Under the pieces are notes generated by a model. That model saw nothing but the letters and a program-made list of their open reading frames with translations, was not told the origin of the DNA and ran no database searches. A stretch of 36,267 bases of DNA, taken from the NCBI GenBank assembly GCA_964570775.1, contig CAZMZI010000001.1, forward strand, positions 1-36,267, given 5' to 3'. The stretch comes from an uncultured Pseudomonadales bacterium. GTDB taxonomy: Bacteria > Patescibacteriota > Microgenomatia > UBA1400 > PJMF01. Shown piece by piece: positions 1 through 36,267 of this stretch. The position numbers were made by a program, and so were the translations under genes. Numbering within the stretch: the first letter of the stretch is position 1; every line of letters starts with the position of its first letter.

Positions 1-132
1 ATTGTTGAGTCACCAATTTATCAAGATGTGCTAGACAACTGGTGGCAACGCTTGGGTAGTAACATTACTATTGAAGAAACAGTACCAATTAATAGTAATT
101 TAGTTGTATATAAAGTTAAAAGAAGCAAATGA
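1..132 (+). CDS. 3' end of a CDS entering from the left edge (43 codons, IVESPIYQDVLDNWWQRLGSNITIEETVPINSNLVVYKVKRSK*). Product not identifiable from the fragment.
   Basis: Frame 1 is open from base 1 to TGA at 130-132. The stop overlaps the ATG of the next gene (ATGA at 129-132), the same coupling seen at nine other junctions in this window. Confidence 0.45.
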   Translation: MVESPIYQDVLDNWWQRLGSNITIEETVPINSNLVVYKVKRSK

Positions 133-1676
133 AAAGCAATAACCTTTTTTACTTTGTTCTTGGATTACTAATTGTTATTGGTTTTGCACTTCGTCTGTAT
201 CCTGGGAGCAACCATCTTATTTGGAGTTATGACCAAGCCCGAGATTCTGTGGTAATTAGATCGGTTTTTGGTGAAAAAAACATACTACTCGTTGGCCCTC
301 AGACAGAATATGTAGGCTTAAGTCATGGTCCTCTTTACTACTACATGCTTGCCCCTTTTTATCATTTAGGTCAATCCAATTTAAACATTCCACTTTTCTT
401 CATGATTTTCAGTAACATTGCTACTATCGTGCCACTGGCGTTGCTAACTCAGAGTATGTTTAAAAGAAAGTCAACAACCCTATTTGTGGTACTTCTCTTT
501 GCTTTTGCCTATCAACAAGTTGAGTATGCTCGGTGGCTTTCAAACGTCTCAATCACAATTCCATTTCTAGCTTGGTTTTTTTACTATATGTGGCAATCTG
601 TTTCAAGGCATACAAACCTACTATTGGCTGGACTTTTTCTAGGACTGGCAATTCAAGGGGAGATTTTTTTACTGTACCTCATGCCTTTTTGCATAGTTTT
701 CTTTTTGAATGTAAGAATGCCGAGTAAAAATAGTATTCGCTTTTTTGTAGGTTTACTTATTTCACTATCATCATTTATTTTAGCGGAACTTCGTTTTGGA
801 TTTTTGGCAACCAACACATTTATTACCTCATTTCTTGGTGACCAAAAAATTGCAGCTGGTAGCCCAAGTACAGCATTGCTTGGGTACTTAGACCATTTAG
901 GCTTAACGGTGTATCAATCTATTGGTGGTTTAACTCCAAGTATGGGCTTACTACTTCTTGGAGGTGGAGTTTTGTGGCTAACACTACTGTATTCTTCTGG
1001 GGAGCTTAAAAAAAATATTCAAGCTGTTTCATTTTTGCTCTTTTTCTTTTTTTCACACAGCATTTTGTTCACGTTTAAATACGTTGATTCCGTCTTTTTA
1101 GATATATCAATTACTATTCCACTGTTTATTTTGACAGCCTTTTTACTGCACAAACTCTTTTTTTCTCGATTTACTGTCCTTGCAGTTGGGATACTTTGCT
1201 TTGGAGTAGTCACTCAACTTTATCAATTATATGCAAACACAGTACATCAAACTCCCATGCAATCGTATAAATTCCACCAAGGTGGCATTTTATTCTCACA
1301 GAAAAAAGAAATTGTGGAACAACTGTATGCAATGGCAGATAACAAGCCGTTTACTTTTGGTGTATTGGGTACCCCGTACGGTGTACAAACAACTTGGGCT
1401 ACCATTTTTGAACAACTGCTTGCTGAGCATCCTACGTATCAAAAACCACAGTGGTTTGGGTTTCAAGCATTAGGATACCCCTATGATTCTTACTTCACAA
1501 AGACAGATCACCCTGGCATGCCTCACTTTGTCATAATTGAAGAGAATATTCTTACTTTAGCTGGAGAATATGTAGTGGCAGACTACATGAAGCAACTTGA
1601 TGCAACAACACAAATGGAGCAAGAGCAAACCATGTATGGATTTAGAATTCAAGTTAGAAATCCTATCCTAAAGTAG
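129..1676 (+). CDS. Polytopic membrane protein, ArnT/PMT_2-like GT-C glycosyltransferase candidate (subtype 2).
   Basis: 515 aa, with about 370 aa of repeated hydrophobic segments followed by a soluble C-terminal domain of about 140 aa. The N-terminal loop SYDQARD...LLVGPQTEYVGLSHGPLYYYMLAPF is paralogous to 12236-13780 (SNDTLRD...PTVGPKASVGNFYLPPLYYQVHLLF). A shared R-W-(L/N)-x-x-(S)I-T-IPF segment follows. Confidence 0.7.
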   Translation: MKSNNLFYFVLGLLIVIGFALRLYPGSNHLIWSYDQARDSVVIRSVFGEKNILLVGPQTEYVGLSHGPLYYYMLAPFYHLGQSNLNIPLFFMIFSNIATIVPLALLTQSMFKRKSTTLFVVLLFAFAYQQVEYARWLSNVSITIPFLAWFFYYMWQSVSRHTNLLLAGLFLGLAIQGEIFLLYLMPFCIVFFLNVRMPSKNSIRFFVGLLISLSSFILAELRFGFLATNTFITSFLGDQKIAAGSPSTALLGYLDHLGLTVYQSIGGLTPSMGLLLLGGGVLWLTLLYSSGELKKNIQAVSFLLFFFFSHSILFTFKYVDSVFLDISITIPLFILTAFLLHKLFFSRFTVLAVGILCFGVVTQLYQLYANTVHQTPMQSYKFHQGGILFSQKKEIVEQLYAMADNKPFTFGVLGTPYGVQTTWATIFEQLLAEHPTYQKPQWFGFQALGYPYDSYFTKTDHPGMPHFVIIEENILTLAGEYVVADYMKQLDATTQMEQEQTMYGFRIQVRNPILK

Positions 1677-1679
1677 GTG

Positions 1680-2387
1680 TTACTTGATTTTGAGCAACAC
1701 TCCAAACTTTACGATTACCCAAACTGCTCGCAACGCATCTTTTAAACCTATTTTTTTGCCTTCTTCATAGGTACGTCCATGGTAAGCAATACCTATTTCG
1801 TACATTCTCAAATTCATGTGCGCAACTTTTGCAGTTATTTCTGGTTCAATGCCAAAGGAATTTTCTGTAATGATAATACTTTGAATAATTTCTCTCCTAA
1901 ACATTTTATACCCAGTTTCCATGTCAGTAAGGTTAACATTATTAAATATATTTGAAAGTAAAGTGAGATAGGTATTGGCAAGATAGTGCCAGAAATAGAC
2001 AACCCTATGTGCTCTTGAGCCAACAAACCGAGTACCATATACAACATCGGCTTTTTCATCCAATAGAGGTTGAAGTAATCTGGGGAGATCTAGTGGGTCA
2101 TACTCCAAATCAGCATCTTGTATTACAACAAAGGTACCCGTTGCTTTAGCAATACCATCTCGTAATGCTGCACCTTTGCCACCATTTTTTGTTCTTAAAA
2201 TACACGTATCTATTTTCTTTGCAATTTTTTTAAGAACATCTCTAGTAGCATCTGTTGATCCATCGTCAACAACAATAATTTCTAGCGAAGGAACACCGCA
2301 TTTTCTTACTGCATCTACAACGTGTTCAATTGTTTTTTCTTCATTAAAGACTGGAATTACTACCGAGAGCAAAGGGTGTTTACTCAT
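1680..2387 (-). CDS. GT2 glycosyltransferase, short soluble DPM1/GtrB/ArnC-like form (candidate polyprenyl-phosphate sugar synthase).
   Basis: 235 aa with GT-A signatures: SVVIPVFNEE, IIVVDDGSTD, KNGGKGAALRDG, DADLEYDP (DxD), TDMETGYKMFRR. ATG at 2387 gives an 8-nt overlap with the upstream small membrane protein gene. Confidence 0.85.
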   Translation of the reverse strand: MSKHPLLSVVIPVFNEEKTIEHVVDAVRKCGVPSLEIIVVDDGSTDATRDVLKKIAKKIDTCILRTKNGGKGAALRDGIAKATGTFVVIQDADLEYDPLDLPRLLQPLLDEKADVVYGTRFVGSRAHRVVYFWHYLANTYLTLLSNIFNNVNLTDMETGYKMFRREIIQSIIITENSFGIEPEITAKVAHMNLRMYEIGIAYHGRTYEEGKKIGLKDALRAVWVIVKFGVLLKIK

Positions 2388-2733
2388 TTTTTTTCTTTTC
2401 TATTTCTTCTAGCTTGGTAAGTACAGCTTTTCTGCGAACAAACTGTTCGACTTTTTTTTCTAGAGTCTTAATCTTAAAGTAGCTCAAAAATAACACAACG
2501 GAAAGAATCATGAATGCCATGACAACAAGTAAATCAAAAACTCGAGCAAAACTAAGTAATCCCGTAATGCCTAAAAGTAAGTGTGGAAATAGAGCTACAA
2601 CGATAAAAAGTATCCAAACTGAAATCCATGCAGATGTTTCAATAGCTGTTAAGTTTTCTTTTTTACGATGTATTGTAACTACGTAAATCATTACGAGTGC
2701 AAACAAAGCTGAGGCTATCTGAAATACTGTCAT
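2380..2733 (-). CDS. Small membrane protein, DUF2304-like.
   Basis: 117 aa with hydrophobic helices (FALVMIYVVTI, WISVWILFIVVALF, LLVVMAFMILSVVLFLSYF) and a basic patch after helix 1 (HRKKENL). The charged C-terminal tail looks like a coiled coil (KTLEKKVEQFVRRKAVLTKLEEIEKKK). It sits between two GT2 genes, with ATGA and 8-nt overlaps, which is the usual context of DUF2304 proteins. Confidence 0.7.
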   Translation of the reverse strand: MTVFQIASALFALVMIYVVTIHRKKENLTAIETSAWISVWILFIVVALFPHLLLGITGLLSFARVFDLLVVMAFMILSVVLFLSYFKIKTLEKKVEQFVRRKAVLTKLEEIEKKKNE

Positions 2734-3407
2734 AACGTTAACCTCCAGAGTACCACACTATGTAGAAAATCAAGAGTATTAAGTAGAGTCATACCCTTGT
2801 CGTGGTCATGGTAAATAGTATCTATCGATACTACAGCGAATCTTAATTTAAATCGAGACACCCTGCACGCAATTTCCATTTCTACTTGATAACCAGGTGA
2901 CACCCAAAGAATTTGTTTGAGTACTTTCTTTTTGAACGCCTTATAGCCAGAGGGAATATCTGGTATGAGTGGTCCGCCAAAAAAAAACTTTACCACTAAT
3001 GAAGCAGCAAAGTTAGATACTCTTTTTATAAACGGCATTGCCGTATCTCTTTTACGTGCGCCAAATACAACATCATACCCTTCATCTAGCTTGTTTTGAA
3101 ATAATCCAAGTTCAGTAGTTGAGTGCTGATCATCAGCGTCCATGAGGATGACAGCCTGAGCACCGCAGTGCTTAAATGCATAGTCACACCCAGTTTTTAG
3201 GGCTGCACCTTTTCCTAGATTAATCTCATGTGTTAGTACATGTGGTGTGTATTTTTTTGCTATATGTGTGGTGTTATCAGTTGAACCATCGTCTACAAAA
3301 ATAACATTAGTGGTAATAGCACTAACCTTACTGAGTACTCTATCTACGTATTTGCTCTCATTGTAACCTGGAATCACCACCCATGTTTTTGTGTTTACCA
3401 CAGACAT
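2730..3407 (-). CDS. GT2 glycosyltransferase, short DPM1/GtrB-like form (candidate polyprenyl-phosphate sugar synthase).
   Basis: 225 aa with WVVIPGYNES, IFVDDGSTDNT, NLGKGAALKTG, LMDADDQH (DxD), PSGYKAFKKK. ATGA overlap with the DUF2304-like gene. Confidence 0.85.
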   Translation of the reverse strand: MSVVNTKTWVVIPGYNESKYVDRVLSKVSAITTNVIFVDDGSTDNTTHIAKKYTPHVLTHEINLGKGAALKTGCDYAFKHCGAQAVILMDADDQHSTTELGLFQNKLDEGYDVVFGARKRDTAMPFIKRVSNFAASLVVKFFFGGPLIPDIPSGYKAFKKKVLKQILWVSPGYQVEMEIACRVSRFKLRFAVVSIDTIYHDHDKGMTLLNTLDFLHSVVLWRLTL

Positions 3408-3410
3408 ATA

Positions 3411-4331
3411 TTACTTGTTCCAGTACTCCACAAAGTACTTCACTGTTTGAGCTATACCTTCATCTAAACTCATTTCTGCGTGCCATCCAAGTTGTGTTCT
3501 AGCTTTGCTAGCATCAGCATATAACTTTCGAGGATCACCAGGTCTATCTGGAAAATGGGTTACTCTAGCTTTTTTCCCCAATACACTTTCAATAGCTGCT
3601 ATTAAATCAAGTACAGTTGAAGGTTTTTGGGTAGACACGTTGAAGTAATGATATTTACCACTTTGGTTTTCACAAAATGGTATTGCTAATAAATGAGCAG
3701 ATACGATATCTTTTATGTGTATGTAGTCCCTTAGATGTTTCCCATCGCCCCAAACCGTTACCTCCTCACCATTGTATATTTGTTTAATGAAACGAGGGAG
3801 TGCGTGTGTTTCCGGTTCATGATGCTCTTCAGGGCCATACAAGTTAAAATATCTCAGAGCAACGCCAGTCATGCCAAATGATGAAACGTATGATGAAATG
3901 AGTCCCTCCATTGCTAATTTTGTCATCCCATAAGGATTGATTGGCAGAGTTCTATCATCTTCTTTAATTGGTATTGAAAGTGGTTCACCATATACGGCAG
4001 CACTAGAAGAAAAAATAAATGTTGGTACATTATTTTTTCGCATTGCTTCAAGAACACTTACAGTTCCACTTATATTGTAATCAACAAATTTTTGTGGATA
4101 TTTCACCGACTCACCTGTTTCAATCAGTGATGCTAAATGAAATACTACATCTACATCTTTAATTTCAGCATCCATCCTTTCGCTATCTCTTACATCTGCA
4201 ATGACTGTATCGAACTCCTTACTCTCTCTGATATCAATATTCTTTACGCTATGTCCGTCTTGTATTAAAGCACGCTGTAAGTGAGTACCTAAAAACCCAG
4301 AACCTCCAGTTACTAGTATACGTTTTCCCAT
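3411..4331 (-). CDS. NAD-dependent sugar-nucleotide epimerase, GalE (UDP-hexose 4-epimerase) family.
   Basis: Rossmann motif ILVTGGSGFLGTHL, SSSAAVYG, catalytic YGMTKLAME (YxxxK), LRYFNLYGP, GDPRKLYADASKARTQLGW. I place the start at ATG 4331 because AGGAG lies 4 nt upstream (complement of 4336-4340). The ORF-track start at 4352 is a TTG. Confidence 0.8.
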   Translation of the reverse strand: MGKRILVTGGSGFLGTHLQRALIQDGHSVKNIDIRESKEFDTVIADVRDSERMDAEIKDVDVVFHLASLIETGESVKYPQKFVDYNISGTVSVLEAMRKNNVPTFIFSSSAAVYGEPLSIPIKEDDRTLPINPYGMTKLAMEGLISSYVSSFGMTGVALRYFNLYGPEEHHEPETHALPRFIKQIYNGEEVTVWGDGKHLRDYIHIKDIVSAHLLAIPFCENQSGKYHYFNVSTQKPSTVLDLIAAIESVLGKKARVTHFPDRPGDPRKLYADASKARTQLGWHAEMSLDEGIAQTVKYFVEYWNK

Positions 4332-4339
4332 ATCACTCC

Positions 4340-5485
4340 TTATGCTACCCAATATCCCTGTACAAAAAGTATCGTATTAATAATAAGTAGTATACCCGAA
4401 ATTACGAGCCATACAGCCAATTGTTTTGGTTTTGATGAAAGAGAGTGTGATACCACCATAAAGAGCGGAAAACATGCAAGGACATATCGAGGAATACTTG
4501 ATAAGCTACCAGTAAGTGTTGGTATTAGTAAGGCTAGTATAGAGAAAAGTAAGTATGAGCTTCGAATTTTTTTTCTTTGCACAAACAGTACAGTTGCAGT
4601 AAGTGTGAACAGCGCAAAATCTTGCACATAAGAAAAATACTTCCAATCAAATGGTCTGTATGTTATGAGAATTTTAATGTATCTATACAAGACCTGTGGT
4701 AACAAAATGATGGATTCTTGTCTACCTGCACCAAACTCGGACTGTACATGAAAAAAATACAGTGCGTCATTGAAAGTTATCTGTAAGTAAGCCATGTACA
4801 CCAAAAGTCCCATTCCTCCTAAACACATTAAAGCCAATAACGGTACTTTTTTACTATAACTTTGTCCTTTTTTTTGAATGAGAACTTCCAACATAAGTGC
4901 AGGAACCAATGCAATCCCCACTACTTTTGTTGCACTTGCTAACGCTGCAAAAAAAACTGCTACTAGCCATAGTCGCTTTCTTGCAAATAGAAAGCTGCTT
5001 ACAACTAAAAACAAAAAAAGTGATTCAGCATACAAAGATGTAAAGAAAAAAGCTGTAGGAAATAGAAGTACTACTGCCACTAGTTTCCAGTTGTTTGTTA
5101 CTTTGTCATCAATTGTTTGTAGTTTTACAAATGCAAACAGAAATGCGACTAAAAATGAAAATGAAACAAACAGACCGCTAGAGATTACAGAAAAGCCCAA
5201 AGAGTACAGCACAAAAAGAAGTACCGGATAAAGTGGAAAAAAAGCTTGTATTAAGCCTGTACCGACATACCCGTTCGTTACAATAGTGATGTAGTGTACT
5301 CCATCAAAATTCGCAAATGAGTAGATACTTTTATCCAACCCTGATATCGCTAATTTTTCTGCAGAATATGGAAAACTCGGCTTGTACTCTAAAAAAGAAT
5401 CTGAGACAAAGCTAACCGAGTGTATAACTACTCTCCACAACACAACGGTAACCAGAATAGTTAATAAAAGTGACCTTGTTTTCAT
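4340..5485 (-). CDS. Polytopic membrane protein, PIG-V-like (GT76-type mannosyltransferase family) GT-C candidate.
   Basis: 381 aa and hydrophobic throughout. The N-terminal external loop FANFDGVHYITIVTNGYVGTGLIQAFFPLYPVLL matches the W/F-D-x-x-(H/W)-Y...GY...AFFPLYP signature I associate with the PIG-V family. ATGA overlap with the upstream gene. Confidence 0.55.
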   Translation of the reverse strand: MKTRSLLLTILVTVVLWRVVIHSVSFVSDSFLEYKPSFPYSAEKLAISGLDKSIYSFANFDGVHYITIVTNGYVGTGLIQAFFPLYPVLLFVLYSLGFSVISSGLFVSFSFLVAFLFAFVKLQTIDDKVTNNWKLVAVVLLFPTAFFFTSLYAESLFLFLVVSSFLFARKRLWLVAVFFAALASATKVVGIALVPALMLEVLIQKKGQSYSKKVPLLALMCLGGMGLLVYMAYLQITFNDALYFFHVQSEFGAGRQESIILLPQVLYRYIKILITYRPFDWKYFSYVQDFALFTLTATVLFVQRKKIRSSYLLFSILALLIPTLTGSLSSIPRYVLACFPLFMVVSHSLSSKPKQLAVWLVISGILLIINTILFVQGYWVA

Positions 5486-8955: not shown

Positions 8956-8957
8956 GA

Positions 8958-13780: not shown

Positions 13781-13791
13781 TACACATACTC

Positions 13792-28369: not shown

Positions 28370-28401
28370 GTAGATACTTTATTATACCGCATTCACCAGG
28401 T

Positions 28402-29298
28402 TTACCACTGTAATTTTCGGCGAACTCTCGCTATCAAAGAGTGTAAAGGTGTGCGGTGTGTTACTTCCCAATCTGATATCCAATAGTTGAGTTCTTTTTG
28501 AAACAATCGTAGCTCTTTTATAGTAGTGGCTTGATCAGCTTGTGTACTCAAGCTACCTTCGGCCTCCCACTGTTTAAGAACAACCACAACTTCAGAGAAG
28601 GATTGTAGAAAACTGAGTGCTAGACCATGCATACCTTCGTCAATAGCTTTTTGTGCAAACAGTCTGCTTAGTAACTCAGTTCTAAATTGCGCAACAACCT
28701 TCGCAACAGTTGCAGTTTCTGATGCACCATTCTGTCTGGCTTGAATTGTTGTGTAGTTGTTCAACCGCTCCACAAATTGAGATATGGAAGTATAGTTAAG
28801 GTGAAAAAGAGCTGCTGATCTGTCTGCAGGAAAGTAGGAACTACTCCCTTTAATAACAGGTACCGAGTGAATTGCATCTGACCACTCGATTACTCCGTTT
28901 TTAAACAGTCTTAGTTGGTAATCTGGCCACCAACCATCACTCTCTATTTCTTTTCCAAAGATTGAGTTTGATCTAGGCAAAAAATATGCGTCTGCCTGGG
29001 GATGTTCAAGCTCTGCAACAATTTTTCTTTTCAATGTAACTGGCAGAACTTCATCAGCATCCAGTATGAGTACCCACTCTGTTTTTACTTTAGACAAAGC
29101 AAAATTCCGAGCAGGTTCTACGTATCCAACATCCTCAAACAAATAGGTTGCGCTTGCATACTTTTTTGCAATAGTTCTAGTTTCATCACTACTGTGCATA
29201 TCTACCACTATGACAGTCTCCGCAAATGTAACAGATTTTAATGCACTTTCAACAGTTTTGGCAGAGTTTTTTGTATGAACAATTACCGTTAGTGACAT
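28402..29298 (-). CDS. GT2 glycosyltransferase, WaaE/KdtX-like subtype (paralogue 3 of 3).
   Basis: 298 aa with LTVIVHTKNSAKTVESAL, VIVVDMHSSDET, LILDADEVL, and the C-terminal GMHGLALSFLQSFSEVVVVLKQWE. TAATG junction with the flippase gene. Confidence 0.8.
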   Translation of the reverse strand: MSLTVIVHTKNSAKTVESALKSVTFAETVIVVDMHSSDETRTIAKKYASATYLFEDVGYVEPARNFALSKVKTEWVLILDADEVLPVTLKRKIVAELEHPQADAYFLPRSNSIFGKEIESDGWWPDYQLRLFKNGVIEWSDAIHSVPVIKGSSSYFPADRSAALFHLNYTSISQFVERLNNYTTIQARQNGASETATVAKVVAQFRTELLSRLFAQKAIDEGMHGLALSFLQSFSEVVVVLKQWEAEGSLSTQADQATTIKELRLFQKELNYWISDWEVTHRTPLHSLIARVRRKLQW

Positions 29299-30806
29299 TA
29301 TCGCAAGCTCCTTATCTCTTGTATCAGTTTAGCACGGCCAACAAGCAACAGTGTTGTTACATATGTTACCGAGATCACAACTCCACCCAATAACATTTCA
29401 TATACACCTCTTTGCCAAAGGGACATACCAGCTATTCCTACTGCAGCCATTACAACAGCAGAAAGTGTTTGTCGCCAAATGGTTTCCAAGAAAGAAATGG
29501 GAACTATTTTTTGTACAAAGTACAAGGGAACAAAGGATGAAAACGAAATTACTAATGCAGCAACTGCAACCCCATTGTACCCAAACAACCAGATGCAGAG
29601 AGGAGTCACAAGCCAAGTTAGCGCTATCCACATTACCATAAGCCACAAAGTTGTGTTTATTTTTCCAATTGCTGTGAGTGCATTTGTTAGCGGCGTCGAC
29701 ACTGCACTCCACCCAATGCTAGCGGTAAACAAGATTAGACTTACAAGTGCAGGCTCCCACTTTGCATATGCCGGGAACACAACAATAATTGGCTTACTTA
29801 GAATTATCATTCCAACTAACATTGGGAAAAGTACTAAAGTAATAAAGAAAAGCGATTTTTCAATTGCTTTTTTAAGTAATAGTGTATGACCTTGCAAACG
29901 TGAAAAGGTGGGAAAAGTGATTGCCATGACATTTTGCACCGTTAAACTGTATGGGTACATAGACCACTGTTTTGCAAAATTAATATAACCAAACTCTTTA
30001 TTTGATAATGATAAACCAAGCACTAAGTAAAAAAGTTGATCTTTAACTCTAGCCAACAGGTCATTGACTTGAAATTTAGCACCAAAGCCAATCAATGACT
30101 TTAATGATGGCTTATTGAGTGCAAAACCTATCTGCCATGGCTGTAACCACAACATAACAACCAAGCCAACTAAAGACCTAAGTACAATTGCATATGCAAA
30201 CGAGATCACACCAAAGCCGCTTATTACCAAGTATAAGAGGCACACCTGAAAAATAATTTGTTCCACTATTTGTGGGATAACTAACTTTGAAAAATCAAGT
30301 TTCCTCTCAAGCATCACCGACGAAACTGTTTTAACTGTAGCTAGTGGAAACGAAACAGCAGTGGCGATAAGAATCCAAAAACCTGCATCACCCGCCTTCT
30401 GCCTAAATACTGGTGTTAAACCAACAAGTAGTGCACCAAAAACAATGACCCAACTTAGTATTTGTTGCAATGTAAATGCCGTTCTGTAATCGGTAAGTGT
30501 TGGCGTTTCTTTTTTCTGAATAAGTGCTGCTGCAAGTCCAATGTCCGAAACAAAAGTAAGGAGTCCAATTACTTGCAACACAATTCCGTACACACCAAAG
30601 TCCTCTGGCGACAAGTACACTCCCAACACAGCCGCAGACACAAAGCCTATGGCATTAATAAATCCTGTCCGAATAAAATAGGATACTGCACCAGATACAG
30701 AACGCTTTTTAATTTTTTGCAATGTTTCTGGCTCAATACTTTCACCATCACCAACACTAAGTAGGACATCCTCTTGTTCACTTAGTTGTGATGGGGTCTG
30801 TGTCAT
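29298..30806 (-). CDS. Wzx/RfbX-type oligosaccharide flippase (polysaccharide biosynthesis protein, MOP/PST superfamily).
   Basis: 502 aa with roughly 12-14 hydrophobic segments. The N-terminal region typical of the family reads SGAVSYFIRTGFINAIGFVSAAVLGVYLSPEDFGVYGIVLQVIGLLTFVSDIGLAAALIQKKE. It lies inside a glycosyltransferase operon, with an ATGA overlap to the upstream gene. Confidence 0.8.
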   Translation of the reverse strand: MTQTPSQLSEQEDVLLSVGDGESIEPETLQKIKKRSVSGAVSYFIRTGFINAIGFVSAAVLGVYLSPEDFGVYGIVLQVIGLLTFVSDIGLAAALIQKKETPTLTDYRTAFTLQQILSWVIVFGALLVGLTPVFRQKAGDAGFWILIATAVSFPLATVKTVSSVMLERKLDFSKLVIPQIVEQIIFQVCLLYLVISGFGVISFAYAIVLRSLVGLVVMLWLQPWQIGFALNKPSLKSLIGFGAKFQVNDLLARVKDQLFYLVLGLSLSNKEFGYINFAKQWSMYPYSLTVQNVMAITFPTFSRLQGHTLLLKKAIEKSLFFITLVLFPMLVGMIILSKPIIVVFPAYAKWEPALVSLILFTASIGWSAVSTPLTNALTAIGKINTTLWLMVMWIALTWLVTPLCIWLFGYNGVAVAALVISFSSFVPLYFVQKIVPISFLETIWRQTLSAVVMAAVGIAGMSLWQRGVYEMLLGGVVISVTYVTTLLLVGRAKLIQEIRSLR

Positions 30807-32548
30807 GTACTCTTTCTTACCAGTTTTCGTGAATCAAATTGATACAGTACATACAAACATACCACCAATGAAACAACTGTTATAACATCACTCGTATTTC
30901 TTATTGGAGTACCTCGCAATTGTATTCCAACCAAATGAGAGCCAGCAGGTAGCTGTAGTGCAATAGTACCTCTACTTGTAACCATATGTGGATACACTTC
31001 ACCATCTACTTCTACAACCCAACCTGGAAAAGCGGCAATACTAAACTCAACCAAGGTTTGAGTTGTAGCATCAACTGTGTAAAGCCGTTCGTGTGTTCTC
31101 TTCACTAACTCTGTCTTTTTTACGCATTCTGGTATGCAAACGATTCCTTCTGAAGGTGGAATTACTATCTGCTCTAGGTTAAGGTCTTTAGAAATATAAT
31201 CAGGCAAAATGCCACTCATTTCTACCTGAATTTTTTCTGGTTGAGCATAGTACAACCCTTTAGGATCGTCTAACACTGCTTCAGGTTTAAAATACAGAGT
31301 GTTACCAACTACTAACAGTGCCATGACAGTAAAAAAGTAACCCATTTGTATACCTTTTGACCGAATCAAGATCAAGGGAGATGCAACGAGTATGCTTGCA
31401 AAAAAGCTGGCAACACTTAAAAATCTCCAGGGAAACTGCACATACTGTAGAAGTGGAATGCTTGCCCAAATAGGTTCAGAACGCTGCAGTGTCATGTACA
31501 GTGACCCTAAAAGTAGAGTTACTGTTCCAGCCAAAATCCATACATGAGACTTGGAAAGCAGGAGTGGAATACTCTTTTGTTTGAAAAAAACTACACATCG
31601 CTTCAAAACAATAATGCCAAAGGTGATGATACCAAACCACTGCCCAAACCCCAAAAAGAAAGATATTGGATCGTCTGGACCCCATTCTGAGCCACCGTAT
31701 CCCCAAGCAAAATCAAAAAACTGGCGAATGTACAAAAAATGTAGATTATAGTTAAAGTAGTCACCAACAATTGCTTCGTTAATTTGTGTAAAGTCTTTTT
31801 CTAGAAAAGCTGGAAATAAGTAAAAAGCACTTACACCAATCGCTAATAAAAATGCAGCTCCTCCAGTAAGTAACTGTTTCCAACTCATACTCTTTTTTGA
31901 ACTGTTCTTGTGTGTATGTTCAGAGAATAGGTAGATAGCAAAAAAAGCAAACAAAAAGGGGACTGCGATGAGTGTTGTCAAATTGTGACTCAAAAAAAGT
32001 ATGCAAAAACTCACCACTAGTATGCCAAACCCCCGATGAAGTGAATGACGAAGACTTAAAAAACCATACACAATCCATGGCAATGCCATCATTCCCCAAG
32101 CCTCACTCACTGCTCCACGCACAAATAAATTTAAAGCTCTATAGGGTGCCAGCGTTAATGCAAATGAAGTCACCACTCCTGCCCAACTGCTATCAAAAAG
32201 CGATTTGCCTAAATAGTAGCCACCAATTACCGTACCAACCGTTGCAATTAAAAAAAGTAGTTTTACCGAGCTAACTAAGGGTATACCTAGCATGTAAAAA
32301 AGCGCACCTAGTAAATAAGGAAGTGGTGCATAAAACTCAAAGAGTGGCATTCCATACCCGTACCCAAAGTTACTACTCCATCTTGCCGGAATATGACCGT
32401 CAGCTAGAGCGCGAGACATTTCAACAATTCGAGCCCCATGCACAAAGTCGTGTATTTTAAACATGCCTGGTCGCAGTAACGCCCAAGAGGTTACAAAAAC
32501 TGCAACACATAAAAATGCCACTGTAAAATAGGGTACAAGTTTTTTCAT
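30803..32548 (-). CDS. Polytopic membrane protein, PTPS-related/YfhO-like GT-C candidate (paralogue 3 of 3).
   Basis: Motifs: MFKIHDFVHGARIVEMSRALADGHIPARWSS...YGYGMPLFEFYAPLPYLL, mid VQFPWRFLSV, C-terminal FPGWVVEVDG...LPAGSHLVGIQL plus a terminal TM helix. Start at ATG 32548 (MKKLVPYF...). The ORF-track start at 32554 is a TTG. First gene of the 10-gene minus-strand operon. Confidence 0.6.
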   Translation of the reverse strand: MKKLVPYFTVAFLCVAVFVTSWALLRPGMFKIHDFVHGARIVEMSRALADGHIPARWSSNFGYGYGMPLFEFYAPLPYLLGALFYMLGIPLVSSVKLLFLIATVGTVIGGYYLGKSLFDSSWAGVVTSFALTLAPYRALNLFVRGAVSEAWGMMALPWIVYGFLSLRHSLHRGFGILVVSFCILFLSHNLTTLIAVPFLFAFFAIYLFSEHTHKNSSKKSMSWKQLLTGGAAFLLAIGVSAFYLFPAFLEKDFTQINEAIVGDYFNYNLHFLYIRQFFDFAWGYGGSEWGPDDPISFFLGFGQWFGIITFGIIVLKRCVVFFKQKSIPLLLSKSHVWILAGTVTLLLGSLYMTLQRSEPIWASIPLLQYVQFPWRFLSVASFFASILVASPLILIRSKGIQMGYFFTVMALLVVGNTLYFKPEAVLDDPKGLYYAQPEKIQVEMSGILPDYISKDLNLEQIVIPPSEGIVCIPECVKKTELVKRTHERLYTVDATTQTLVEFSIAAFPGWVVEVDGEVYPHMVTSRGTIALQLPAGSHLVGIQLRGTPIRNTSDVITVVSLVVCLYVLYQFDSRKLVRKST

Positions 32549-32595
32549 GAACAATACTATTCTAACAACAGTTATATCAGATTAAAAACACAATC

Positions 32596-32623
32596 TTGTG
32601 TGCATACTAAACGCCGTTACAAT
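32596..32623 (+). promoter_or_regulatory. Candidate sigma70-like promoter for the LCP-rfb block.
   Basis: TTGTGT (32596-32601), a 16-nt spacer, then TACAAT (32618-32623). If it is used, the transcript would start near 32630 and the LCP start codon would be ATG 32643, preceded by AAGG at 32631-32634. AT-rich background makes chance matches likely. Confidence 0.25.
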
Positions 32624-33767
32624 GACTACTAAGGCAAAAAACATGAAAAATCACATAGAAGTTGCTAATCAGATCGAAAAACAAACACAACCAAATGACC
32701 ACGTTGAAGTGTTATCAGGCTGGCAATTATTTGTAAAAGCTACCATATTATCTTTGGGCATAACCACAGTCTTTTTACTCATAACTGCAGTTGTACTTAT
32801 TGGTATTGGCTGGTCAAAACTTAACACTTTTTTACAATATGCGGATATTTCATTGAGTGAATTAAAACAAGATATACAGCTTGGACTTGACTCAACTGAG
32901 TATGAAAATAAAGACACGGTAGTCTTCTTGCTTCTTGGTCTCGATTCTCTCCAAACAAGACCAGGTAGTCCAGCACTCACAGATACCATGCTTTACGCTG
33001 TGGTAAACACCAAAACAGGGACCATTACAACAGTTCCGCTTCCTCGAGATCTTTGGAGTGAAGAGTACCAAACAAAAATAAATGCACTGTATCACTATGG
33101 CAAAGAACGCTATCCAGATGCACCACAAACATTTAGCCAAGAAGTTCTCGACGCTTTGTCTGGACTTACAACCACCCACACAGTTGTTGTAACAATGGAT
33201 ACTGTTGCAGAAATTATTGATATTCTTGGAGGCATTACTGTCGACGTGCCGGCTGGATTCACTGACACCGAATTTCCTCGAACTGACGTCGACGTCACAA
33301 AAGTTACAGATCCAAAGCTGCTCTACGAAACAATTACTTTTACTACTGGGTTAGAGCATATGTCTGGAAAAAGAGCACTCCAATACATTCGTAGTAGAAA
33401 AAGTTCTGACGACCAAGGTACCGACTTAGCTAGAGGTCATCGTCAGCAACTCGTTTTAGAGAGCATGCTGCAAACACTCCAAACCAGAGAAGTACTCACC
33501 AACCCTGTTATTATGGGTACACTTTTTGCATTTTACAATTCTCAAGTTGGACACTATATTCCAGTAGAAAGCGTAGTAGCTATGGCAAAAAAAATGTATC
33601 CTGTCAAAAACTCTATACAGTTTAAAAACCTAACACTCACCGTGTATCCAGAGGATAGATATGGAGTACTCACAAACCCACCACTCTCAAAACACAAACA
33701 GTGGGTGTATGAAATAAAAGATCAAAAAGCTTTTTCAGATTTTTTTGCTACAGTACTAACTAGGTAA
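32622..33767 (+). CDS. LCP (LytR-CpsA-Psr) family glycopolymer-to-cell-wall phosphotransferase.
   Basis: One N-terminal TM helix (ILSLGITTVFLLITAVVLIGIGW), then an LCP core: VVFLLLGLDS, TDTMLYAVVNTKTGTITTVPLPRDLW, GKRALQYIRSRK, DLARGHRQQLVLESM. The start is ambiguous between GTG 32598, ATG 32622 and ATG 32643. Confidence 0.85.
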   Translation: MTTKAKNMKNHIEVANQIEKQTQPNDHVEVLSGWQLFVKATILSLGITTVFLLITAVVLIGIGWSKLNTFLQYADISLSELKQDIQLGLDSTEYENKDTVVFLLLGLDSLQTRPGSPALTDTMLYAVVNTKTGTITTVPLPRDLWSEEYQTKINALYHYGKERYPDAPQTFSQEVLDALSGLTTTHTVVVTMDTVAEIIDILGGITVDVPAGFTDTEFPRTDVDVTKVTDPKLLYETITFTTGLEHMSGKRALQYIRSRKSSDDQGTDLARGHRQQLVLESMLQTLQTREVLTNPVIMGTLFAFYNSQVGHYIPVESVVAMAKKMYPVKNSIQFKNLTLTVYPEDRYGVLTNPPLSKHKQWVYEIKDQKAFSDFFATVLTR

Positions 33768-33774
33768 AAACAAA

Positions 33775-33987: not shown

Positions 33988-33995
33988 GGGACATC

Positions 33996-35024
33996 ATGAC
34001 ACATTCTGGAAAGAAACTACTTGTTACCGGCGGCGCAGGATTTATTGGTAGTAACTTTATTCTTTATTGGATGGAAAAGTATCCAGAAGACCAAATTGTC
34101 AATCTTGATGCGCTGACCTATGCAGGTAACTTATCCAACCTTGTTTCAGTTGCAGACAATGAAAACTATACGTTTATTGAAGGAAATATCTGCGACCCAG
34201 ACATAGTTAACCAGGCAATGTCTGGTGTGCATACCGTTGTCCACTTCGCTGCAGAATCACATGTTGATAGATCAATATTGAATCCAGGTGCATTTGTCCA
34301 AACAAATGTTATTGGTACACAAGTGCTTTTAGATGCAGCACTGACACATAAAGTTGCACACTTTCACCACATTTCTACCGATGAAGTGTTTGGCTCACTC
34401 AGACTTGGTGAAACAACAAAATTTAACGAGCACACACCCTATGATCCCCGCAGCCCGTACTCTGCTAGTAAAGCTGGCTCAGACCACTTAGTACGCGCAT
34501 ATGGTGAAACGTATGGCCTACCCTACACCATTACTAACTGCTCAAACAACTATGGTGAGTATCAATTTCCCGAGAAACTCATCCCACTAGCAATCACGCA
34601 CTGTATTGATAGCCTAAAAGTACCCATATATGGTGAGGGCAATCAAATTCGAGACTGGCTTTATGTAAAAGATCACTGTAGTGCCATAGATGCAGTGCTC
34701 CAAGCTGGACCAACGCAAAGTACCTACTTAGTTGGTGGACTATCTAAAGATATCCCTAATAAGACTGTTGTTACAACAATACTTTCTTGCATGCACAAAG
34801 GTGAAGAAATGCTAGAACATGTGCCAGATAGAGCAGGACATGATGTGAGATATAGTGTTGATTGGTCTGTTATACAAACAAAGCTTGGTTGGAAACCATC
34901 TGTAACCTTCGAAGAAGGTATTCAAAAAACAGTTGAATGGTACATAAACAATGAGGCATGGTGGAGACCGCTCAAAACAGCAGCCGCTGGATTTTTTGGT
35001 ACAAATTACACAAACAGAAAGTAA
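33996..35024 (+). CDS. rfbB: dTDP-glucose 4,6-dehydratase.
   Basis: 342 aa with LLVTGGAGFIGSNF, HFAAESHVDRS, ISTDEVFG, YSASKAGSDHLVRAY (YxxxK), ITNCSNNYGEYQFPEKLIP, GEGNQIRDWLYVKDHC. AAGGGA RBS lies 4 nt upstream of the ATG. Confidence 0.95.
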   Translation: MTHSGKKLLVTGGAGFIGSNFILYWMEKYPEDQIVNLDALTYAGNLSNLVSVADNENYTFIEGNICDPDIVNQAMSGVHTVVHFAAESHVDRSILNPGAFVQTNVIGTQVLLDAALTHKVAHFHHISTDEVFGSLRLGETTKFNEHTPYDPRSPYSASKAGSDHLVRAYGETYGLPYTITNCSNNYGEYQFPEKLIPLAITHCIDSLKVPIYGEGNQIRDWLYVKDHCSAIDAVLQAGPTQSTYLVGGLSKDIPNKTVVTTILSCMHKGEEMLEHVPDRAGHDVRYSVDWSVIQTKLGWKPSVTFEEGIQKTVEWYINNEAWWRPLKTAAAGFFGTNYTNRK

Positions 35025-35085
35025 CGTCCTGCACACAGTTTTTAAACCCTCCCCTACTGATCTTGATGAACAGGGCATAGTAGCT

Positions 35086-35643
35086 ATGCCTATACCAGGC
35101 ATGTTCTTTGTTGCAAGCAAAAAACATATTGATGACAGAGGTTACTATAGTGAACTATCACGTATACCAGAGCTAGACCCACACCTTCCACAGCCACTGG
35201 TGGCAAAACAAGTAAACTTAGCTCGTTCTGAAAAAAATGTTGCCCGCGGTATTCATGCTGAGGACTGGAATAAGTTAGTAACCGTAACTCATGGTGTATG
35301 TTTTTGCGCTTTTGTAGATTTACGACCCACCTCACCCACCTTTACACAGGTTACAACTGTTGTTCTAGGCCATGGTACTGATGCAACTTTTGGCAGTGTA
35401 TATGTACCAACTGGTATTGGTAATTCACTCTGTGTTCTTGAAGGACCAGTAGACTATCTATACATTGTTGACCGGTTATATAAGGAGCGTGACCCAGCTG
35501 GTGATCAAGCATTCTCACTTTTTGACCCAGATTTAGCTATTCCTTGGCCACTTCCAATTGATCAGATGATACTGTCACAGCGCGACAAAGCTTCAATCAC
35601 ACTCAGAGAAAAGTATCCCGACCACTTTGGAGGGCAATCATGA
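35086..35643 (+). CDS. rfbC: dTDP-4-dehydrorhamnose 3,5-epimerase (RmlC-type cupin).
   Basis: IPGMFFVASKKHIDDRGYYSEL, VARGIHAEDWNKLVTVTHGVCFCAFVDLRPTSPTFTQV, VYVPTGIGNSLCVL, DPDLAIPWPL. I prefer ATG 35086 (185 aa, normal RmlC length) to the ORF-track ATG 34951, which would overlap rfbB by 74 nt. Confidence 0.8.
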   Translation: MPIPGMFFVASKKHIDDRGYYSELSRIPELDPHLPQPLVAKQVNLARSEKNVARGIHAEDWNKLVTVTHGVCFCAFVDLRPTSPTFTQVTTVVLGHGTDATFGSVYVPTGIGNSLCVLEGPVDYLYIVDRLYKERDPAGDQAFSLFDPDLAIPWPLPIDQMILSQRDKASITLREKYPDHFGGQS

Positions 35644-36267
35644 ACAAATCACCAATTATTGTAACTGGACTCAACGGTCTGATTGGTTCTCGATTCAAGC
35701 TCGATTATCAGAATAGCTATGAAATTACTAGTTTTGATATCTCTGATCCTCAAAATCCTGTTGATATAACCAAAAAGGAGCAAGTACTTAAAGCTTGTGA
35801 AGAAAGCCCAGCATCGCACGTTGTGCATTTTGCCGCATACACAGACGTGACAGGTGCATGGAAACAAAGGGATGATAAAAGCGGTCCAGCGTACCAAGTT
35901 AACGTTGTAGGTACACAAAACATTGTTGAAGCCTGCAACAAGACCAACAAACACCTTATTCATATTTCTACAGCCTACGTTTTTGATGGAAAAAACGAAT
36001 CTCTCTACACAGAAAATGACCCTATCAATCCAATAGAGTGGTATGGCTATACCAAAGCACAAGCTGAGCAGGTAGTACAATCAAGTTCAACTAACTGGAC
36101 CATTCTTCGTATTGATCAACCTTTTCGATCAGATATAGTTGAAAGACCAGATATTGTGCGAAGAATTGTGACTGGTATTAAAGAGAATAAACTACCACCT
36201 CAATTTACCAACCATACGTTTGGTCCCACCTACATTAACGACTTTTGTATAGTAATAGACAGGGTAA
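35640..36267 (+). CDS. rfbD: dTDP-4-dehydrorhamnose reductase, 5' part (runs off the right edge).
   Basis: My own translation, not in the ORF track because no stop is reached: MNKSPIIVTGLNGLIGSRF..., HFAAYTDV, HISTAYVFDG, YGYTKAQAEQ (YxxxK). GGAGGG at 35629-35634 lies 5 nt upstream. ATGA overlap with the rfbC stop (35640-35643). Confidence 0.85.
   Translation, partial: MNKSPIIVTGLNGLIGSRFKLDYQNSYEITSFDISDPQNPVDITKKEQVLKACEESPASHVVHFAAYTDVTGAWKQRDDKSGPAYQVNVVGTQNIVEACNKTNKHLIHISTAYVFDGKNESLYTENDPINPIEWYGYTKAQAEQVVQSSSTNWTILRIDQPFRSDIVERPDIVRRIVTGIKENKLPPQFTNHTFGPTYINDFCIVIDRV

Follow-up and report, generated by a model that had tools for sequence, protein, structure and literature searches.

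A 36-kb locus of an uncultured Patescibacteria bacterium encoding a battery of GT-C membrane glycosyltransferases

What does an uncultured ultra-small bacterium of the Patescibacteria (CPR; Microgenomates/Pacebacteria-like) make with 13 membrane glycosyltransferases encoded side by side? The window, i.e., the whole 36,267-nt stretch of DNA that was analysed, contains 13 intact polytopic ORFs of 381 to 592 aa that sum to 21,111 nt (58.2%) in the ORF listing, and Kyte-Doolittle scans find 7–11 hydrophobic segments in every one of them. All-against-all BLASTP divides them into four groups, called A, B, C and D, of seven, three, two and one members. The preliminary description of this DNA had counted the same 13 ORFs (about 21 kb, 58%) and proposed the same grouping, and both were reproduced.

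Both ends of the window cut genes, namely rmlD at the right and a 14th GT-C gene at the left (g00, 1–132, + strand), of which the C-terminal 43 codons and the stop are present. The translation of this fragment is the end of an intact 501-aa gene in a 97% relative (L011:8499-10004), which matches the g01-family profile with E 2.6e-32 and the g12-family profile with E 1.9e-19; g00 is therefore a group C paralog. The window probably (about 60%) covers most of a super-locus of at least 46 kb for the biosynthesis of a cell-envelope glycan, which would work as a scaled-up multi-component transmembrane glycosylation system. Since 13 membrane glycosyltransferases and donor-making enzymes are found in 36 kb, this tiny cell appears to devote an unusually big share of its genome to a sugar coat outside the membrane.

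GT-C identity of the four groups

Independent evidence places each of the four groups in GT-C: Pfam for groups A and B, and AlphaFold models plus the Pfam matches of homologs for groups C and D. Single-sequence Pfam searches recognise 4 of the 13 proteins (PMT_2 on g10, g15 and g17; PTPS_related on g13) and give no direct match on the window members of groups C and D. AlphaFold modelling covered two proteins, g01 (group C) and g06 (group D), groups A and B resting on Pfam and profiles, and both models (pLDDT 92–93) match GT-C structures only. Profile-profile comparisons link A to C (97–98%), the two C members to each other (99.8%) and A to B (88–90%). Every group keeps, immediately behind TM1, an acidic residue that is invariant or nearly so. 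It would lie in an outward-facing loop, and the N-termini are rich in K/R, consistent with an N-in topology; such residues suggest catalytic potential in all groups. The preliminary description would have been contradicted if most of these proteins had been assigned to non-glycosyltransferase folds, but Pfam, profiles and models all point to GT-C.

The group A paralogs (g10, g11, g15–g19) share 21–31% identity, with BLASTP E-values down to 1e-56. When window members and orthologs were searched one by one, PMT_2 was matched by 21 of 30 and PMT by 7 of 30, and the group A profile matched ArnT (5ezm, E 7e-4) in the PDB. The product of g15 (16220–17926, - strand) exceeds the cut-offs of both PMT_2 (33.3 bits) and PMT (28.2 bits); that of g17 (19736–21427, -) exceeds the PMT_2 cut-off (30.0 bits) and matches PMT as well. 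The PMT_2 match of g10 (8958–10544, -) is slightly under the cut-off (2.8e-5; 24.8 against 26.1 bits), and its assignment is completed by paralogy (E to 1e-37) and an RDE motif after TM1. The longest ORF of g11 (10519–12195, -) has 603 aa, and the ATG at 12195 (558 aa) fits the gene calls of relatives; g11 is 30% identical to g18 (E 1e-56), carries a WDE motif and belongs to an ortholog clade that spans five genomes. Paralogy also identifies g18 (21397–23058, -; WEE at the motif position; E 1e-33 to 1e-39 to g19) and g19 (23048–24691, -), a core GT-C of module 2 whose ortholog holds the same position in the related loci L003, L004, L005 and L006. The most divergent member is g16 (17961–19739, +; 592 aa), which has no Pfam match and is placed by BLASTP (E 7e-20 to g18, 1e-13 to g11) and its HDE motif; its L003 ortholog is 61% identical.

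Group B comprises g07 (5482–7137, -; 551 aa), g13 (13777–15492, +) and g26 (30803–32554, -), which match each other with BLASTP E-values of 1e-23 to 1e-34 (1e-29 to 1e-34 for g26). As judged from sequence, this group is GT-C on the basis of its PTPS_related and YfhO matches (6 and 2 of 11 window members and orthologs, respectively) and of the modest profile link to group A mentioned above. The PTPS_related match of g13 (2.3e-8) clears the cut-off of 26.4 bits with 33.4. The orthologs of g07 in L002 and L009 also bear PTPS_related, and H31-D32 of g07 is invariant. The other core GT-C of module 2, g26, is flanked by LCP and Wzx genes in L003–L005.

With respect to group C, g01 (129–1676, +; 515 aa) and g12 (12236–13780, +; 514 aa) match with a pairwise E of only 3e-4, yet profile against profile they reach E 6e-28. 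No match to g01 was found in Pfam or NCBIfam. Its model (pLDDT 92.8) has an ArnT-like fold, the best Foldseek match being ArnT 5f15 (E 2.9e-8, TM 0.59) and the top 26 matches all being GT-C; 16 of its 43 homologs carry PF13231, and D35..R38-D39 after TM1 is near-invariant. PF13231 is carried by 25 of 41 homologs of g12, some of them named GT39 or ArnT-like, and the g12 profile matches group A at 97.3%. The single group D protein, g06 (4340–5485, -; 381 aa), is PIG-V/Gpi18-like: its homologs are named Gpi18-like mannosyltransferases and many carry PF04188. The top 37 Foldseek matches of its model (pLDDT 92.0) are all GT-C, with a weak best E of 1.4e-3, and include STT3/PglB, ALG12/9/3/6, GPI-MT-I (TMq 0.54), ArnT, Emb and PimE. 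F60-D61-G62..H64-Y65 of g06 is invariant.

Donor supply, cytoplasmic assembly and export genes

Three short GT2 enzymes, read in the preliminary description as DPM1/GtrB/ArnC-type, are encoded by g02 (1680–2387, -), g04 (2730–3407, -) and g14 (15489–16223, +). All of them match Glycos_transf_2 (1.3e-35 for g02, 4.1e-22 for g14) and have no predicted TM segment, and further searches bear that reading out. The best PDB match of g02 is the P. furiosus DPMS (5mlz), ArnC, GtrB and other GT2 enzymes being matched too, while g04 matches DPMS, ArnC and GtrB exclusively; no PDB match was found for g14 at 1e-5. In NCBIfam, the top three models for g04 and g14 are PpgS, AglJ and Dol-P-hexose transferase. 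AglJ and PpgS are the best for g02, with Dol-P-hexose transferase and ArnC among the best and PgfS also matched. All these scores are far below the equivalog cut-offs, including the full-length PpgS match of g04 (3.9e-33; 114.8 bits against 370). The three proteins are supported as putative polyprenyl-phosphate-sugar synthases, g04 being PpgS-like.

Between g02 and g04, and overlapping both, g03 (2380–2733, -) encodes a small 3-TM protein of the DUF2304 family (PF10066, 2.7e-14; 53.7 bits, cut-off 25.5). This family includes activators of the GacJ and Rv3632 type (Rush et al.; PMC3485146), and by analogy g03 probably acts as the membrane activator of g02 and g04. The PpgS-like g04 is adjoined by g05 (3411–4331, -), a GalE-like NDP-sugar 4-epimerase (Epimerase, 1.3e-61) whose match to TIGR01179 GalE (5e-65, 219.5 bits) is under the cut-off of 262.

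The cytoplasmic glycosyltransferases include g08 (GT4; 7134–8195, -; Glycos_transf_1, 1.6e-23), with MshA and GlgM-type enzymes as best PDB matches, and g09 (GT2, 255 aa; 8188–8955, -; Glycos_transf_2, 3e-22), which adjoins g08 in every related locus. A second block (24696–29298, -), identified by Pfam GT2 and GT4 matches, consists of g20 (GT2, 24696–25550), g21 (GT4, 25547–26635), g22 (GT2, 26617–27459), g23 (GT2, 27449–28369) and g24 (GT2, 28402–29298). In NCBIfam g23 matches GlfT1 and, weakly, the rhamnosyltransferase TIGR01556 (4e-14). This block is collinear in L003–L005; L006 starts inside the g22 ortholog, and g22–g20 alone are visible there. It is followed by g25 (29298–30806, -), a Wzx/MOP-family flippase (Polysacc_synt_3, 7e-48) with NCBIfam matches to MOP flippase, O-glycosylation flippase and TuaB. 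An LCP (LytR-CpsA-Psr) glycopolymer-to-peptidoglycan transferase is encoded by g27 (32598–33767, +; PF03816, 1.1e-26; TIGR00350, 77.3 bits, cut-off 62.3). The right end carries rmlB (33996–35024, +; TIGR01181, 460.5 bits, over the cut-off of 365), rmlC (34951–35643, +; PF00908, 5.7e-30; true start probably later) and the N-terminal 209 aa of rmlD (35640–36267, +; PF04321, 1.5e-36; TIGR01214, 2.5e-34), which runs off the window.

Neither an initiating phosphoglycosyltransferase nor RmlA, Wzy or an ABC exporter is found within the 36-kb window. To carry both a PP-linked primer and three P-linked sugars across the membrane, the window offers a single Wzx-type flippase and no GtrA-type flippase. 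Both points count against the pathway proposed below.

Conservation of the locus

The genes could have been scattered in related genomes, which would have spoken against a locus. Instead, gene order is collinear in a relative with 49–85% protein identity, where 12 of the 13 GT-C genes are retained one-to-one, and two modules recur in more distant Patescibacteria with fewer or different GT-C genes. L009 and L010 keep module 1 (g02–g11) together as one unit, with neither Wzx nor LCP; its four GT-Cs are co-conserved in fixed order across distant genomes, and g09-g08-g06 is a trio found again in L005, L007 and L008. The g12–g16 middle block is variable, and clear orthologs of g16 and g17 are confined to the closest relatives; one L007 protein falls into a group with g15 as well. 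Among relatives, the same scaffold holds from 1 (L006) to 12–13 GT-C genes.

Each group A paralog forms a separate ortholog clade across genomes; the GT-C genes are old paralogs that have been individually maintained. Against the 97% relative, five GT-C genes have dN/dS values of 0.12–0.36 and are under purifying selection, and g10 is identical there. Old paralogs with clades of their own, conserved gene order and purifying dN/dS argue that the battery is not due to chance. Between strains dS is mosaic, ranging from 0 to 0.25 in neighbouring genes, a pattern suggestive of recombination. Neither slippage tracts nor repeats resembling invertible promoters were seen.

Proposed pathway, alternatives and known systems

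Donors, acceptor, sugars, order of action, wall attachment and the choice of assembly over decoration only are inferred here, as is a rhamnose-containing, Wzx-exported primer. RmlBCD and the GalE-like epimerase would supply nucleotide sugars, from which g08, g09 and g20–g24 would assemble a lipid-linked oligosaccharide, no initiating enzyme being present in the window, and g25 would carry the lipid-linked material across the membrane. Monosaccharides would be loaded onto polyprenyl phosphate by g02, g04 and g14, with the probable help of g03. At the outer face, the 13 GT-Cs (14 with the truncated one) would elongate and branch the glycan from lipid-phosphate donors. Some of them probably polymerise or ligate it as well, since the window has neither a Wzy polymerase nor an ABC exporter. 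The LCP enzyme g27 would join the product to peptidoglycan.

Other products are conceivable. It is unlikely that module 1 makes a membrane-anchored lipoglycan, analogous to PIM/LM/LAM, rather than a wall-linked polymer, with g08 and g09 priming a glycolipid at the inner face and g06, g07, g10 and g11 extending it outside with the polyprenyl-P-sugar from g04 and g03. Mycobacteria offer the precedent of GT4 priming followed by GT-C elongation (PMC3485146). The occurrence of the module and the g09-g08-g06 trio in the genomes cited above would fit, as would GPI-mannosyltransferase I and PimE among the structural neighbours of g06 and the weak matches of g08 to a GlcN-phosphatidylglycerol synthase model and MshA-type GT4 enzymes. 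However, g08 matches generic GT4 far under the cut-offs, nothing points to a lipid acceptor, and the Wzx/LCP module adjoins module 1 without a break in this genome. Somewhat less likely still are proteins as main acceptors, i.e., that the PMT-like group A and other enzymes use polyprenyl-phosphate sugars for the O-glycosylation of pilins, S-layer proteins or extracytoplasmic regions rich in Ser/Thr, as PMT does in actinobacteria and the Pgf system in streptococci. In streptococci, Ser/Thr-rich disordered regions are reported to be glycosylated in one study (PMC12041528). The PMT and PMT_2 matches, both of which g15 and g17 have, fit protein acceptors equally well, and the PgfS and AglJ matches of g02 and the O-glycosylation flippase match of g25 go in the same direction. 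However, ArnT-like transferases of lipids and glycans also belong to PMT_2; among known structures, those closest to the modelled proteins are ArnT and ALG enzymes, not PMT, and the group A profile likewise matches ArnT and not PMT in the PDB. Moreover, the LCP ligase and rml genes of the locus are of a kind typical of wall polysaccharides, and no gene for a candidate acceptor protein is present in it.

The GT-Cs might also form a choice of side-chain decorators, independent and largely interchangeable, of which only a subset matters at any time and which diversify the surface (for instance, for phage or host-recognition variation) instead of catalysing consecutive steps on one product. The changing GT-C number, the variable middle block and the mosaic dS agree with this improbable alternative, whereas the age of the paralogs and their one-to-one retention, the purifying selection on the five measurable genes, the fixed order of the four module 1 GT-Cs and the lack of visible invertible-promoter-like repeats and slippage tracts are against it. 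It is very improbable that several or most of the 13 are inactive GT-C-fold pseudoenzymes or scaffolds, as PIG-U is in the GPI transamidase, or flippase-associated proteins, as Agl23 is: both g06 and g01 have PIG-U among their structural matches, and g12 weakly matches Agl23 (E 1e-4), but the structural neighbours are mostly active enzymes, the acidic residue after TM1 is kept in every family and three donor synthases are encoded alongside.

The transmembrane glycosylation system that we favour has counterparts in its parts. The preliminary description stated that this gene composition could not be matched to a characterised system; this does not hold for the parts and does hold for the scale. 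The four-component GacI/GacJ/GacK/GacL system follows the same logic as parts of this locus, the Lactococcus Wps system has a GT-C polymerase and ligase (WpsI, WpsJ) that are a precedent for the GT-Cs described here, and mycobacteria possess a GT-C battery fed by polyprenyl-P donors (PMC3485146). The scale of the GT-C battery in this locus is without a characterised counterpart.

Glycosyltransferases encoded in the window

The window has a GC content of 36-42%, is nearly all coding and holds 30 genes plus two partial ones according to the ORF listing (genes are called here g01 to g27 from left to right, followed by rmlB, rmlC and rmlD). Thirteen ORFs are polytopic, each with 7-11 hydrophobic segments in a crude Kyte-Doolittle analysis, in agreement with the approximately 8-13 transmembrane helices of the GT-C superfamily. 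Their summed length is 21,111 nt (58.2% of the window), which bears out the share assigned to them in the preliminary description, where at least 13 GT-C-like enzymes in four groups had been tentatively read as an extracytoplasmic glycan assembly line. The four groups were reproduced in an all-against-all BLASTP comparison. Group A consists of g10, g11, g15, g16, g17, g18 and g19 (21-31% identity, E down to 1e-56), group B of g07, g13 and g26 (E 1e-23 to 1e-34), and group D has g06 as its sole member. Group C is formed by g01 and g12, whose pairwise similarity is weak (E 3e-4 over 62 aa) and whose family profiles align over 360 columns with 99.8% probability (E 6e-28). The latter group does not belong to a rare family, since g01 homologs alone account for 886 cluster representatives at E<=1e-30.

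Direct Pfam matches were obtained for four of the 13 GT-Cs. PMT_2 scored above its cut-off on g15 (33.3 bits) and g17 (30.0 bits) and slightly under it on g10 (24.8 bits), and PTPS_related matched g13 (33.4 bits); the remaining nine, searched as single sequences, gave no match up to E 10. The GT-Cs of the window include members of sizeable families that are detected weakly or not at all by Pfam and, with so few direct matches in this locus, the GT-C content of the Patescibacteria (CPR) is probably under-annotated. For g12 and g06, single-sequence searches against a profile lacked the necessary sensitivity, and family alignments were used instead. When orthologs and paralogs were scanned individually, PMT_2 was found in 21 and PMT in 7 of the 30 group A members, PTPS_related in 6 and YfhO in 2 of the 11 group B members, and PF13231 in 16 of 43 g01 homologs and 25 of 41 g12 homologs. 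The homologs of g06 are named Gpi18-like mannosyltransferases and many of them carry PF04188. Profile-profile comparisons connected group A with group C (97.3-97.7%) and with group B (88-90%), and the alignment of the g06 family connected it weakly with group A (56-57% probability).

Searches against the PDB gave ArnT as the sole real match of an enlarged group A profile (E 7e-4), nothing at E<=1 for the small paralog profiles A1 and A2, and no meaningful match for an enlarged group B profile. With the Pfam PMT model, g15 alone exceeds the cut-off (28.2 vs 22.7), and g17 scores weakly. A DE motif occurs in group A; the group A profile match and the structural neighbours of the modelled GT-Cs favour ArnT-like enzymes over PMT.

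AlphaFold models were obtained for g01 and g06, the two least-supported members, the other 11 being linked by sequence or profile. Both models (pLDDT 92.8 and 92.0, respectively) are all-helical membrane bundles that resemble the GT-C superfamily. The best 26 Foldseek matches of the g01 model are all GT-C enzymes, with ArnT at E 2.9e-8 and a TM score of 0.59. The best 37 matches of the g06 model are likewise all GT-C, the best E value being modest (1.4e-3, probability 1.00), and its structural neighbours include STT3/PglB, ALG enzymes, GPI-mannosyltransferase I, ArnT, Emb and PimE.

A conserved acidic residue is present right after TM1 in all four groups, as in the modified DxD motif of GT-C enzymes. 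Group A shows D/E-E, in which E41 is invariant among 30 sequences; group B an invariant H31-D32; group C a D..R-D that is at least 90% conserved; and group D an invariant F-D-G..H-Y. The N-termini of the GT-Cs are rich in K and R, which fits an inside location; with this orientation the motif would be on the first loop outside the membrane, where known GT-Cs have it.

With respect to gene boundaries, a fourteenth GT-C gene (g00), a third group C paralog, is cut by the left edge of the window (1-132, + strand). In a 97% relative this gene is intact and encodes 501 aa (L011:8499-10004); its end shares 4 nt with the beginning of g01. At the right end, rmlD starts at 35640 (+) and runs off the edge at 36267, hence its absence from ORF listings. 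A 143-aa ORF at 35649-36080 (-) lies inside rmlD on the opposite strand; it was therefore not accepted as a gene and is probably spurious. The longest-ORF start of rmlC is probably too early: it overlaps rmlB by 74 nt (34951-35024), and residue 46 is the first one covered by the Pfam match. For g11, the longest ORF (603 aa, with 12196-12330 as the extra part) is probably also too long, as it runs into g12; an ATG at 12195, giving 558 aa, corresponds to the gene calls in relatives.

Five 26-nt direct repeats (10315-10340, 11975-12000, 21183-21208, 22844-22869 and 24456-24481) are 73-92% identical. Because they encode the conserved SFGDYKxPG motif of five group A paralogs, this family reflects paralogy still visible in the DNA, rather than a repeat of mobile or regulatory nature. 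The repeat search revealed neither invertible-switch-like nor slippage elements, and phase variation was therefore dropped as an explanation. No tRNA genes or Rfam families were found in the window, and promoter and terminator scans were uninformative, promoter-like sites being fewer than in shuffled sequence.

Candidate genes for donor synthesis, export and wall attachment

The three small GT2 ORFs noticed at the outset (g02, 1680-2387; g04, 2730-3407; g14, 15489-16223) were recovered at the same positions and have no predicted TM segment. These putative polyprenyl-P-sugar synthases are co-encoded with the GT-Cs, for which they are candidate makers of lipid-phosphate donors. The best PDB match of g02 and g04 is the Dol-P-Man synthase (DPMS) of P. 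furiosus; ArnC and GtrB were also matched, and the matches of g04 are limited to these three types. No PDB match was found for g14 at 1e-5. The top NCBIfam model is PpgS for g04 (114.8 bits, full length) and AglJ for g02 and g14, and all these best matches (DPMS, ArnC, GtrB, PpgS, AglJ) are far under the equivalog cut-offs.

Between g02 and g04, and overlapping both, lies g03, which has the features of a DUF2304 activator (PF10066, 53.7 bits against a cut-off of 25.5) and three TM segments. The DUF2304 family includes GacJ, which binds GacI, an Und-P-GlcNAc synthase, and stimulates it (Rush et al., bioRxiv 10.1101/180810), and Rv3632, which stimulates the polyprenyl-P-GalNAc synthase PpgS (PMC3485146). 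The g02-g04 set is adjoined by the GalE-like g05.

GT2 and GT4 enzymes are encoded by g08, g09 and g20-g24. A comparison of g08 with the PDB, as a test of a glycolipid-primer idea, gave generic GT4 matches only, and a weak TIGR01556 match of g23 is the sole rhamnosyltransferase signal. The only Wzx/MOP flippase of the window is g25. The LCP ligase g27 scored above its cut-off and RmlB above its equivalog cut-off. RmlC is present, as is part of RmlD, so that both dTDP-rhamnose synthesis and an LCP enzyme are represented. Within the window there is no initiating phosphoglycosyltransferase, RmlA, Wzy polymerase, ABC exporter or GtrA-type flippase, the last having been sought among ORFs of at least 100 aa.

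Conservation and variation among relatives

The named homologs and related contigs belong to Candidatus Pacebacteria, Woesebacteria, Beckwithbacteria and "Patescibacteria group" (NCBI phylum Minisyncoccota). Some NCBI labels of related loci (L002 and L003, both from CAZKVV010000002.1, as well as L005 and L008) and of homologous proteins (P0018, P0109) read Pseudomonadales, Gammaproteobacteria or Vitreimonas. Since gene content and nearest relatives are those of Patescibacteria, the taxonomy of these MAGs is probably mislabelled. Two proteins of the window gave no result when looked up by exact sequence, and the contig from which the window comes (50,147 bp) was reached through protein P0121 only.

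The 97% relative (Logan SRR8893622) is collinear with the window from g01 to g13. To the left it carries g00 and then a divergent operon (L011:1-8460; also L002:13876-21194) that encodes two SDR epimerases/dehydratases, a GT2, two GT4, a Methyltransf_21 protein, a UDP-GlcNAc 2-epimerase and a UDP-sugar dehydrogenase, after which a pectate-lyase-like gene is found. With this leftward continuation the glycan locus reaches at least 46 kb. A more distant contig, CAZKVV010000002.1 (49-85% protein identity), is collinear from g02 to g28 and holds 12 of the 13 GT-Cs one to one, g01 alone being missing.

Two modules recur in other relatives. Module 1, g11-g10-g09-g08-g07-g06-g05(-g04-g03-g02), is collinear in L009 and L010 at 31-63% identity, and its g09-g08-g06 trio is found again in L005, L007 and L008. 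Module 2, rmlB-LCP-g26-Wzx-GT2x3-GT4-GT2-g19, is kept in L003, L004 and L005, and its visible g22-g19 part in L006. The g12-g16 block is variable between relatives, and the number of GT-Cs on the scaffold varies: one in 14 kb in L006, six in L005 and about eight in 21.5 kb in L007. Four extra polytopic proteins of 415-646 aa in these loci, L005:11457-13397 (-), L009:13975-15537, L009:18116-19660 and L007:4724-5971, had no BLAST match to window proteins (E<=1e-4 to 1e-5); one matches GT87 and three are without Pfam match. They may represent further GT-C families swapped into the scaffold.

In a neighbour-joining tree, most group A paralogs fall in their own cross-genome ortholog clades, which argues that the duplications are old and the copies individually maintained. 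Of these paralogs, g11, g10 and g19 are widespread across genomes, clear orthologs of g16 and g17 are found in the closest relative only, and g15 also clusters with one L007 protein. Five GT-C genes show purifying selection, with dN/dS of 0.12-0.36 against the 97% strain, a set that excludes g13, whose L001 ortholog is truncated, and g10, which is identical. Values of dS against the same strain (L001; window 129-13780) form a mosaic from 0 to 0.25 (g10 0, g09 0.006, g11 0.20, g02 0.25), and such differences between neighbouring genes suggest recent recombination within the locus between strains.

Proposed glycan assembly and comparison with known systems

The observations made here concern which genes are present, their folds and families, conserved motifs, synteny and purifying selection. 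Beyond them, we infer a route by analogy with multi-component transmembrane glycosylation, the scheme that the part list of the window appears to match. A GT2 enzyme, one of three candidate donor synthases, would make a polyprenyl-P-sugar with the assistance of the DUF2304 activator, a flippase would carry it over the membrane, and one of the 13-14 GT-Cs available would move the sugar onto an envelope polymer outside. As neither Wzy nor an ABC exporter is encoded in the window, polymerisation or ligation of lipid-linked oligosaccharides is probably the task of some of the GT-Cs, by analogy with Lactococcus WpsI and WpsJ, and g26 and g19, being conserved in module 2, are the best candidates for these functions. 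The other GT-Cs would add or extend branches, like the PimE/Mpt/Emb/Aft battery that in mycobacteria uses few polyprenyl-P donors. From the LCP enzyme and rmlBCD, the product would be a polymer with rhamnose that is joined to peptidoglycan; acceptors may be a wall glycan, a lipoglycan (in connection with module 1) or proteins.

Patescibacteria have genomes of about 1 Mb (1.0-1.4 Mb for the related contigs here), and the cultivated members live in attachment to other cells. Very little has been established about what their envelope is made of. With at least 46 kb and 14 predicted outward-acting glycosyltransferases, the conserved locus corresponds to about 3-4% of such a genome, which implies that these cells invest heavily in a complex surface glycan. 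The source organisms are uncultured and the locus is useful for CPR envelope biology: it offers biochemistry concrete targets in its three candidate donor synthases and its four families of GT-C enzymes, and a conserved scaffold on which the number of GT-Cs varies constitutes a natural system for studying the evolution of glycan complexity.

The locus is clearly real and coherent, and its proposed mechanism is of a familiar type: it would work like the GacIJKL, Wps, CsbB-YfhO and mycobacterial systems and is a member of none of those loci. Unusual are the scale and the setting, since a single conserved locus in a genome of about 1 Mb holds 14 GT-Cs of four families; a literature search found no paper on GT-C batteries in Patescibacteria/CPR.

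The likeness to GacI/GacJ/GacK/GacL, of the S. pyogenes group A carbohydrate (bioRxiv 10.1101/180810, PMC9574508), is one of parts: its small Und-P-sugar GT2, DUF2304 activator, Wzx-family flippase and GT-C have candidate counterparts in g04, g03, g25 and the GT-Cs of the window. Both loci also have rml genes and an LCP enzyme, which attaches the streptococcal product to the wall and would do the same here. However, Gac has one GT-C and one donor synthase, whereas the window has 13-14 and three candidates, and the streptococcal backbone is ABC-exported and GacO-primed, neither feature being encoded in the window. Since Pfam detected no ABC transporter domain in any of the 30 ORFs, and g23 gives the only, weak, rhamnosyltransferase match, the window shares the logic of the Rgp/Gac/Rha-CWPS loci but is not one of them. 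The Rha-CWPS/PSP of Lactococcus lactis is made with WpsA/B, the Wzx protein WpsG, the GT-C polymerase WpsI and the GT-C ligase WpsJ, and decorated by CsdA/B (PMC9574508). This system is of interest because its GT-Cs, besides adding single sugars, polymerise and ligate lipid-linked oligosaccharides outside the membrane, a possible role for GT-Cs in the window, where no Wzy is encoded. Its GT-Cs are few, some are encoded elsewhere in the genome, and the host is a Firmicute.

Glycosylation of teichoic acids by CsbB/GtcA/YfhO in Bacillus and Listeria (PMC8035078, PMC7389260) resembles the window in that group B belongs to PTPS_related/YfhO-like families and a candidate GT2 donor synthase is co-encoded. 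However, no GtrA/GtcA flippase or teichoic acid genes were detected in the window, and group B has three paralogs. As for the ArnC/ArnT lipid A system, ArnT is the best structural match of g01, and g02 and g04 have ArnC among their best matches, but identity to ArnT is about 12%, no other arn genes are present, and the neighbouring LCP, rml and Wzx genes indicate a wall-polysaccharide context.

Mycobacterial arabinogalactan and PIM/LM/LAM are assembled by PimE, MptA/B/C, EmbA/B/C and AftA-D with donors from Ppm1 and the DPA pathway, together with a PpgS-Rv3632-Rv3779 system (PMC3485146). The window resembles this arrangement in three respects: a GT-C battery with few polyprenyl-phosphate donors would make most of the polymer outside, a PpgS-like GT2 (g04) is paired with a DUF2304 protein (g03), and Emb, AftA, AftB, AftD and PimE are distant structural neighbours of the modelled GT-Cs. 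It is possible, at perhaps three chances in ten, that ultra-small Patescibacteria independently evolved a mycobacteria-like assembly line, with most glycosidic bonds in a major envelope glycan made outside from three polyprenyl-phosphate sugars by fourteen dedicated GT-Cs, and with a lineage-variable surface glycan relevant to host attachment; such a glycan may include a membrane-anchored lipoglycan from the widely conserved module 1. The families themselves are different: no ORF matched the Emb/Aft Pfam families at E<=0.01, nor did the nine GT-Cs without Pfam match at E<=10, the window has no DPA-pathway genes, and its GT-Cs are PMT_2-like, PTPS_related/YfhO-like and PIG-V-like. In addition, mycobacterial GT-C genes are spread over several loci, whereas those of the window are gathered in one locus of a small-genome CPR bacterium.
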